In this document: one piece after another, positions 8,235 through 9,903 of the stretch | How the letters are laid out: each line of letters begins with the position of its first letter | Numbering within the stretch: the first letter of the stretch is position 1 | DNA from: Myxococcota bacterium | GTDB taxonomy: Bacteria > Myxococcota_A > UBA796 > CAJQPC01 | Length of the DNA: 64,000 nt | Assembly: GCA_036012755.1 (NCBI GenBank) | Contig: DASCPX010000040.1 | Span: 1 to 64,000 of the forward strand | Reading direction: 5' to 3' | Made by a program: the position numbers and the translations under genes | The notes under the pieces: model-generated | Database searches by the model: none | Told to the model about the DNA's origin: nothing | Seen by the model: the letters and a program-made list of their open reading frames with translations, nothing else

Positions 8235-8256
8235 TCGGCCGCGATAAGCCTTCGGA

Positions 8257-8330
8257 CCGCTGCGGCTGGCCCAGAGGCCTGCAAACACACCGCAGAACCT
8301 GATCCGGCTCGAGAAGGCGGAGGAAAGCGG
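8257..8330 (+). ncRNA. TPP riboswitch (divergent)
   Basis: P1 CCGCT/AGCGG, P2 GCGG/CCGC, P3 GGCC/GGCC and the conserved GAACCTGATC..GG...GCG.AGG core, directly upstream of thiC. Confidence 0.75.
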
Positions 8331-8331
8331 A

Positions 8332-9903
8332 ATGTCCGACAACGGCACCTTCAACAACGGCGCCCGGAGCGCCCGGAAGATCGAGGTGGACGAGCTCGCT
8401 GTGCCCGCGCGCGAGCTGCGCCTGTCCAACGGCGATGTCCACCACCTCTACGACGTCAGCGGTCCTCAGGGCTGCGACCCTCGCCAGGGGCTCCCCGCGC
8501 GACGCCGCGACTGGATCCGTGCTCGAGAGGGTCACCCCGACATCACCCAGCTGCACTACGCGCGCTCCGGTGTGATCACGGAGGAGATGCGCTTCGTCGC
8601 CATCCGCGAGAACGTCGACCCGGAGTTCGTCCGCAGCGAGGTCGCCGCGGGCCGCGCCATCATCCCGGCCAACAAGAACCACCCGGAGCTGGAGCCGATG
8701 ATCATCGGCCGGGCCTTCCTGGTGAAGGTCAACGCCAACATCGGCAACTCCGCCGTGAGCTCCTCGATCGAAGAAGAGGTGGAGAAGCTCCGCTGGAGCC
8801 TGCGCTGGGGCGCTGACACGGTGATGGACCTGTCCACGGGCAGCGACATCCACGAGACCCGCGAGTGGATCCTGCGCAACAGCCCGGTCCCCATCGGCAC
8901 GGTGCCCCTCTACCAGGCGCTGGAGCGTGTCGGCGGCGTGGTCGAGGATCTCGACATCGAGCTCTTCCTCGACGTGCTCCGCGAGCAGGCCGAGCAAGGC
9001 GTGGACTACTTCACCATCCACGCCGGCGTGCGCCTCGCCCACATCCCGCTCACCGCCGAGCGAGTCACGGGCATCGTCTCCCGCGGGGGGGCGATCATGG
9101 CCAGGTGGTGCCTGTCCCACCACCGCGAGAACTTCATCTACGAGCACTTCGAGCGCATCTGCGAGCTGATGAAGGAGTACGACGTCTCCTTCTCCCTCGG
9201 CGACGGCCTGCGCCCCGGATGCATCGCCGACGCCAACGACGCCGCGCAGTTCGCCGAGCTCGAAACCCTCGGGGAACTCACGCAGCTGGCCTGGAAGCAC
9301 GACGTCCAGGTCCTGATCGAGGGGCCGGGCCACGTGCCCTTGCAGAAGATCCGCGAGAACATGGACCGACAGCTCGCGGCCTGCTTCGAAGCGCCCTTCT
9401 ACACCCTCGGACCGCTCGTGATCGACATCGCTCCCGGCTACGACCACATGGCCTCGGCCATCGGCGCCGCCGTCATCGCGAGCCAGGGCTGCTCGATGCT
9501 CTGCTACGTCACGCCCAAGGAGCACCTCGGCCTCCCGGACAAGGACGACGTGAAGCAGGGCATGATCGCCTACAAGATCGCGGCCCACGCGGCGGACGTC
9601 GCGAAGGGTCACCCGGGCGCCTCCGACCGGGACGATGCCCTGTCGAGGGCCCGCTTCGAGTTCCGGTGGGAGGACCAGTTCGACCTCTCGCTGGACCCGG
9701 AGACCGCGCGGGCCTACCACGACCAGACCCTGCCGGCGCCCGCCGCGAAGAGCGCTCACTTCTGCTCGATGTGCGGGCCCAGGTTCTGCTCGATGCGCAT
9801 AAGCAGGGACATCCGCGACGCCGCCGAGCGCGAGGCCGGAATGGCCCAGATGTCCGAGACCTTCAAGGAGTCCGGGGGGACGCTCTACCTTCCCGCGAAG
9901 TAG
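8332..9903 (+). CDS. thiC: phosphomethylpyrimidine synthase
   Basis: [58 protein letters not shown]. Confidence 0.98.

Follow-up and report, generated by a model that had tools for sequence, protein, structure and literature searches.

A TPP-riboswitch-derived aptamer before thiC in a Myxococcota bacterium carries five substitutions private to one species and may be in early decay

The leader of thiC in a 64,000-nt stretch of DNA from a Myxococcota bacterium (contig DASCPX010000040.1, positions 1 to 64,000; hereafter the window, in whose coordinates positions are given) has the layout of a thiamine pyrophosphate (TPP) riboswitch, but reads UGCAA in J3/2 where these aptamers carry the near-invariant UGAGA. 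An earlier note on this DNA, made from its letters alone, proposed a minimal translational switch that might have shifted in affinity or specificity, or else a decaying element. Which of these is it: a TPP sensor that has been re-tuned, a sensor for another ligand, or a riboswitch in the course of being lost?

The gene downstream is a thiamine gene, thiC (8332..9903, + strand), encoding an intact phosphomethylpyrimidine synthase of 523 aa (NF006763 at 880.7 bits, cut-off 650; PF01964; CX2CX4C at 478). Upstream lies an ORF of 168 aa (7728..8234, +) with no NCBIfam or Pfam match, which ends 22 nt before P1 of the aptamer and is syntenic in congeners (49-51% identity to the G001 and G002 loci by tblastn), preceded by a tRNA gene (7574..7657, +; RF00005 57.8 bits; anticodon CAG as read from the sequence, hence Leu) and, after that gene, a terminator-like hairpin at 7666-7687. 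In the same two congeners the upstream ORF and the thiC leader are separated by a further, conserved ORF of about 130 aa (L004:3261-3647 (-), with a matching gap in L003); the two copies are 59% identical to each other and have no Pfam match. This ORF is missing from the corresponding place in the window, leaving just the 22 nt, and a homologue that is 33% identical lies at 34090-34440. In other genera the tRNA is on the strand opposite thiC (L006, L013, L020-L023, L025), as is the 168-aa ORF in L006 and L020, while in this genus both are on the same strand (window 7574-8234), which suggests a local inversion.

Are the unusual letters real? The source genome (G000) is a draft of 6.7 Mb and 68% GC in 250 contigs, and our check compared contigs rather than raw reads, both of which would leave room for an error of assembly or sequencing in a hairpin rich in GC. 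The genome occurs in marine metagenomes, and contigs of four runs were compared. One from run X5 covers 7575-8748 and one from run X9, a separate study, covers 8239-8603, with no letter differing from the window in either (the study of X5 also contains a possible source run); contigs from X7 and X8 likewise show no differences, but end at 8286, too close for bridging. A further metagenome locus, L170, matches the window over 5,062 bases except for 4, all of them outside 8235-8334, and to judge by its sequence is of the same species; three of the four differences fall inside four bases, window 7296-7299. Since contigs of two studies and L170 all carry the same letters, an artefact is refuted for the major allele, which is what assembled contigs cover (rare alleles lie outside their scope), and we regard it as next to impossible. 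Across the samples seen, the variant is the fixed state.

The aptamer extends from P1 to P1 over 8257..8330 (+). Residues 19-82 are named by E. coli thiM numbering, through a mapping that we take to be correct and that was cross-checked against residues named in papers. P1 (8257-8261/8326-8330) has five pairs, P2 lies at 8262-8265/8290-8293, P3 (8268-8271/8276-8279) has four pairs and a 4-nt loop, and P4 lies at 8298-8300/8321-8323; every pair of P1-P4 is Watson-Crick, and these helices are able to form. The J3/2 T-loop (8280..8284, +) differs from UGAGA by A41C and G42A and keeps U39, G40 and A43, so that, by sequence fit to the consensus, it still conforms to a UGNRA lone-pair triloop with G40. 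The layer expected next to it, a G19-G42-A47 triple with an A-minor contact of A41, is absent, the residues being C19, A42 and C41. P5/L5 (8304..8317, +) carries C73A and C74A (8314-8315), by which P5 (8304-8307/8314-8317) becomes C-G, C-G, G·A, G·A in place of four canonical pairs, and its hairpin is not predicted. On the pyrophosphate side, which includes the CG at 8318-8319, U59, G60, C77, G78 and A80 are all present, as is the UNR U-turn in L5. A Shine-Dalgarno-like (SD) GGAGG (8319..8323, +) overlaps G78 and the 3' strand of P4, a layout that relatives share, with the ATG at 8332-8334. The fold described in the earlier note agrees with the sequence at every coordinate, and the pyrophosphate-side elements are intact as it said. 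Its view of the leader as a minimal translational element of TPP type also holds, with the SD inside the aptamer; direct translation attenuation, with the purine-rich 3' end as ribosome-binding site, is a known TPP mechanism (PMC2258182).

A search with RF00059, which that note had named as a check, does find the thiC leader (8252-8342), but at 23.7 bits and E 0.056 (cmscan), under the gathering score of 54.3. At E<=10 the genome has no other RF00059 match. Eight other thi loci gave no riboswitch, the tRNA and TPP were the sole Rfam matches at E<=1 within 7500-9000, and there was no terminator-like site in the leader and no promoter-like site by the sigma-70 consensus within 7450-10100.

Comparison with relatives separates what is common to the clade from what is private to the window. 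A search for ThiC gave matches in 37 of 41 genomes, and across the family the thiC leaders are built on one common scaffold, which the window follows at 44 of 49 invariant columns. Strong RF00059 matches stand before the same gene in relatives, and therefore a chance match is excluded: from its locus and its shared columns, 8257-8330 is identified as the orthologue of the TPP riboswitch that precedes thiC across the family, and its descent is clear although the RF00059 cut-off is not reached. Across the order, RF00059 matched 90 of 151 genomes at 94 places, with 36 of the 151 genomes above the cut-off; many canonical relatives also fall short of it, but the other 93 matches score 34.7-79.6 bits, none of them below 34.7, against 23.7 for the window. 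Across 9 aligned sequences 97.7% of cells are paired, and relatives show changes on both sides of pairs in P3 and P5.

Several features that the earlier note had listed as traits of this leader turned out to be shared. The start codon lies 5-14 nt past nt 82 in 66 of the 93 parsed order aptamers (G000 included), and 83 of 92 aptamers have a TA dinucleotide 20-27 nt ahead of position 19 (G000 is among them, with offset 21), against 5 of 92 with one at offsets 45-52; in the window this TA box belongs to TAAGCC (8245..8250, +), a putative -10 element of the thiC promoter by its position relative to the aptamers of the order. Because of these counts, the SD inside P4/P1, the adjoining AUG and the putative -10 box, all of them present as described, are order-wide rather than private. 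We infer that the transcript starts at about P1. The very short P3 is short indeed, though equally so in three canonical relatives (G045, G062, G132). Of the claim that P5/L5 is atypical, the part about the 3' strand of P5 (8314-8315) stands, while L5 is ordinary: among six-base loops U68 occurs in 84/85 and a purine at 70 in 85/85, the window keeps both, and the loop otherwise varies freely in the clade.

Three side observations come from the same leaders. Six of them (L223, L246, L248, L255, L264 and L220, from G111, G060, G094, G114, G087 and G142) belong to a TPP subtype with an extra base atop P5 and a longer J2/4. Genome G018, listed with 6% contamination, has two thiC copies (C84 and C132; L005 and L213), each preceded by a canonical TPP riboswitch. 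In G014 (G014:C9:778-2219, L039) thiC is matched in two pieces (query 6-228 and 272-519), possibly broken or mis-assembled, and the aptamer has A at position 38.

In the family alignment of 20 aptamers, 49 of 65 columns are invariant, and the window departs at five of these, by G19C, A41C, G42A, C73A and C74A, each of the five states being absent from all 20; the relatives show no departure in 19 cases and a single one in the remaining case. G19C (8266..8266, +), at the top of P2, had been missed by the earlier note, whose reading of J3/2 as UGCAA was right; G stands here in 20/20 family aptamers and in 91 of 93 order rows; in the remaining two the parse is uncertain, and neither has C. UGAGA is found in all 20 family aptamers and in all 93 other order matches. 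The alignment of thiC leaders from relatives, to which the note had looked for conservation of UGCAA, shows no such conservation, and canonical UGAGA, which in relatives or reads would have spoken against its proposal, is thus the rule in relatives and absent from the contigs of the window's own species. C73 and C74 are present in 20/20 family aptamers, and a G·A at 65-74 or 66-73 was seen in none of the well-parsed order rows and in none of 113 aptamers of other taxa.

Searches for a second lineage with such changes were negative in the sets covered. The metagenome scan gave 0 matches beyond L170, which is of the same species; patterns with a non-G at 42 gave 1 other match in 154 order genomes and 1 in 401 phylum genomes, neither of which looks like a TPP aptamer on visual inspection, and 0 in viral contigs. 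A loose GTDB-wide pattern scan returned at least 119 stretches, mostly canonical aptamers; among the matches listed, 113 score as TPP aptamers, 112 of them parsed with UGAGA and 1 parsed wrongly although its UGAGA can be seen. We set aside 6 rows of low score, of which four look like chance matches, one is canonical and one is another degenerate aptamer, L103. The last, L103:537-636 (-) in a Roseovarius MAG, is a TPP aptamer of 47.9 bits whose J3/2 is not UGAGA and whose rest is canonical, with a T-loop that is degenerate or mis-assembled. We found no report of a natural TPP aptamer with UGCAA or C19/A42 in the literature, supplementary variant lists being outside the reach of this search, and no literature data on G19C/A41C/G42A mutants or on the effects of changes at 19, 41 and 42.

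What do the changed positions contact? As described in PMC2018614, G40 hydrogen-bonds the pyrimidine of TPP, on which G42 and A43 stack, and A43•U39 and G42•G19 are non-canonical pairs; the G19-G42-A47 triple stacks on the A-minor contact of A41 with G18-C48, and the pyrophosphate is served by G60, C77 and G78 (PMC3764141). G72 caps the thiazole cavity, whose lining is formed by the backbone of C57, C58 and C74 (PMC9171761). UGAGA is itself one case of the UGNRA lone-pair triloop (PMC2258182), and a G40A mutant of thiM shows no ligand binding (PMC5499598, assuming the same numbering); G40 is retained in the window. The pocket is altered, as the earlier note had it, in that UGAGA is replaced, but it is less broken than implied, with the UGNRA consensus and G40 kept.

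Unconstrained folding, in which the leader does not stand out from chance (z -0.5 to -0.7, with the TPP fold not the MFE), is uninformative for a ligand-dependent RNA, and we compared instead the cost of the aptamer fold above the ensemble, with the 5' end one base before P1, bearing in mind that nearest-neighbour models leave out tertiary contacts and Mg2+. This cost is 9.6 kcal/mol in the window versus 3.0±1.4 (range 1.3-6.4) in 20 relatives; a 5' end 7 nt longer lowers it to 6.5 kcal/mol in the window, the relatives being computed at one 5' end only. The cost is 4.3 once the five columns are reset to the family state and 8.4 with the P5 double change alone; the isolated P5 hairpin is at 0.0 kcal/mol in the window versus -4.3 to -6.5 in the 20 relatives. 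The three changes of the 5' domain, at 3.9 versus 4.3, do no harm to secondary structure. Among random sets of five substitutions (n=250) the cost is 10.9±4.3 and 59% are at least as damaging as the natural set (69-70% at two other 5' ends), and therefore the fold is no better preserved than by chance. The SD is not predicted to be more open than in relatives (7.4 vs 7.7±2.0 kcal/mol to open it).

At the same time, the placement of the changes is somewhat non-random. The 7-nt pyrimidine module holds three of the five (P 0.028, or 0.07 when the changes are taken as three events; post hoc). Two adjacent doublets would arise by chance with P 0.046, hits on both sides of a known contact with P 0.175, and the two together with P 0.007 (also post hoc); the argument from adjacency is weakened because three of the four L170 differences cluster too, though this is one case. 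U39, G40, A43, G60, C77 and G78 are unchanged (chance 0.50 for the five of these tested), as are P1, P2, P3 and P4 (chance 0.07-0.22), and no indel is among the aptamer's changes. We also considered, and rejected, selection of the AA at 8314-8315 for pairing elsewhere: pairing with the hexamer 8248-8253 is unsupported, this hexamer lying upstream of the inferred start, and so is pairing with codons 6-7, since the ensemble stability of the natural set is in both cases average among random five-substitution sets (44-62%).

The leader could be a working switch for TPP or thiamine, re-tuned to lower affinity or relaxed phosphate discrimination and thus shifting the set-point of thiC; we consider this possible, though distinctly short of an even chance. 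Here G19C and G42A would be a compensatory swap in which an adenine docks on C•A, C41 would be tolerated at a variable T-loop position, and P5 would persist with the pairs C-G, C-G, G·A and G·A, to which a C67-G72 pair may have been added. That both partners of the direct G42•G19 pair are changed (contact as in PMC2018614), together with A41, on whose contact their triple stacks (PMC3764141), argues for it, and C19•A42 may act as a stand-in for G19•G42; so do the fit of UGCAA to UGNRA (PMC2258182), the harmlessness of the 5'-domain changes to secondary structure, the non-random placement of the five changes, and the unpublished P4-P5 variants of TPP riboswitches that are reported to read thiamine, TMP and TPP alike (PMC5473149). 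The curated Barrick-Breaker alignment (PMC2258182 supplement) adds in its favour one TPP row with UGAAA in the T-loop column. Against it, CUGCAA occurs at 61 places of that alignment, and among places 37-61 those in TPP rows all lie in flanks or stems. The novelty of all five states among the 20 family aptamers, the absence of UGCAA from the 93 order matches and a P5 loss that costs about 8 kcal/mol of aptamer-fold stability likewise weigh against re-tuning.

A changed ligand seems to us improbable. The pocket would then prefer a thiazole-less or related compound, most plausibly HMP-PP, which lies downstream of ThiC and ThiD, and would give thiC a feedback specific to its branch; the thiazole cavity would become tighter with purines at 73/74, and the pyrimidine site would be shifted by the remodelled triple. 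Since HMP-PP and TPP have the aminopyrimidine in common, pyrimidine-side changes alone would be no pointer to HMP-PP. G40, G60, C77 and G78 are kept while neighbours of the thiazole cavity change, which would suit such a ligand, but C74 lines the cavity by backbone atoms only (PMC9171761). That thiC alone in the genome has a TPP-type element, and that rare new-ligand variants are precedented in other riboswitch classes (PMC5473149), can be set against the restriction to a single species, the unchanged gene association, the failure of the metagenome, order, phylum and viral scans to find a second lineage, and the different make-up of the known HMP-PP riboswitch, an RNA embedded in a terminator (PMC6478431). 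A derivative with a C19•A42 platform, a UGCAA T-loop and a purine-filled P5 that has shifted to a precursor such as HMP-PP would accordingly be a long shot, and the shifted specificity suggested in the earlier note has no phylogenetic support, with one lineage, the same downstream gene and the same pathway genes.

We favour a decayed or weakened switch, in early decay in one species, with TPP feedback on thiC lost, at a rough probability of 0.58; these odds are a judgement, in which we weighed how often one would expect to meet a riboswitch in the middle of being lost against the modest non-randomness of the changes. The five novel states at 49 invariant columns in one lineage, the loss of two P5 pairs and the fold cost support decay, an option that the earlier note had also named, while changes less scattered than pure drift predicts and a UGCAA that stays within UGNRA suggest that decay may not be the whole story. 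The ancestral state would be the family's translational TPP riboswitch, with the transcript starting near P1. In relatives, by the mechanism known from the literature, TPP connects the pocket of J3/2 with that of P4/P5, and the closing of P4 and P1 would bury the SD and the bases before the AUG and turn thiC translation off. In the window the five substitutions would abolish the minor-groove contact of A41, change the G19-G42-A47 triple beneath the pyrimidine pocket and leave two of the four P5 pairs open, such that TPP binding would be lost or too weak at cellular levels and thiC would be translated without TPP feedback. The 3' half of the aptamer would persist partly as a ribosome-binding site, and the rest because relaxation is recent. 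Constitutive expression of thiC would follow from this model, a step we take with caution because the SD is not predicted to be more open than in relatives.

The timing and the setting are compatible with a recent loss. The terminal branch is about 0.7 substitutions per site (fourfold sites; a rough value, near saturation); full neutrality over its whole length predicts about 19 changes, and five fit relaxation over the last ~0.13. Loss is tolerated in the group, 11 of 35 relatives with thiC having no RF00059 match (under strict filters and with incomplete genomes), and six of these 11 loci, rescanned at E<=10, again gave none; a second damaged leader in the family, that of G013 described below, points the same way. 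General drift is argued against because the cobalamin riboswitch of the genome is canonical (124 bits vs 126 and 138 in congeners). With thiE, thiG, thiD and thiL found in the genome, the pathway matches that of congeners (thiM and TPK were not found, with the families used, in this genome or in four relatives), and no new ligand is called for because the downstream gene and the pathway are unchanged. Relaxed selection on ThiC itself was considered and is not supported: its branch is longer (0.27 vs 0.15-0.16), but private substitutions are even (20-27 vs 22-27). A weak partial TenA/THI-4 match (G000:C190:82969-83364, L282; E 5e-6) was not found in two congeners with this query, and the thiC leader of G013 (L012:1420-1485) lacks J3/2, the 3' strand of P2 and J2/4, while that of its close relative G006 (L015) is canonical; this gap may be a real deletion or an assembly collapse.

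How does the leader compare with known systems? With the TPP riboswitch (THI element, RF00059) of the direct attenuation type it has in common the P1-P5 layout, U39/G40/A43, J4/5 G60-A61, C77-G78, the U-turn and the position before thiC, and it differs by C19, UGCAA for UGAGA, the two P5 G·A mismatches and the score. We file it as a variant descended from RF00059 rather than as a working member, because UGAGA, the G19/G42/A41 layer, the four-pair P5 and the score cut-off all fail. Compared by their description in PMC5473149, where they are given as in preparation, the thiamine-sensing TPP variants also have a changed P4-P5 arm, but they are common and altered in the pyrophosphate core, whereas the window keeps G60, C77 and G78, is changed on the pyrimidine side too and represents one species. 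The HMP-PP riboswitch (thiS motif; PMC6478431) would share a precursor-sensing logic if the ligand of the window had shifted; its architecture is unrelated and terminator-embedded, usually before genes of the thiazole branch, in contrast to a TPP scaffold before thiC. The CD3299 variant of the FMN riboswitch (PMC5473149) is likewise rare, with ligand-site changes that raise the same question of defect versus new ligand, but it occurs in many strains and before a different gene, whereas the window has one species and the usual gene. Finally, the predicted TPP aptamers of diatom THIC (bioRxiv 10.1101/2022.01.04.474978) are described as giving no thiamine response, and there as here function cannot be assumed from looks; unlike the window, they keep CUGAGA and are conserved across species.

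What the leader means for its lineage depends on which reading holds. If the ligand has changed, this would be a new specificity in the most abundant riboswitch class, and below the Rfam cut-off. If TPP is still bound, the 'invariant' UGAGA and G19•G42 would be swappable together, and searches by CUGAGA or by the Rfam cut-off would miss working switches. If, as we favour, the switch has decayed, the window would offer a clean snapshot of riboswitch loss, of modest interest, with the 20 canonical orthologues of the family as controls.
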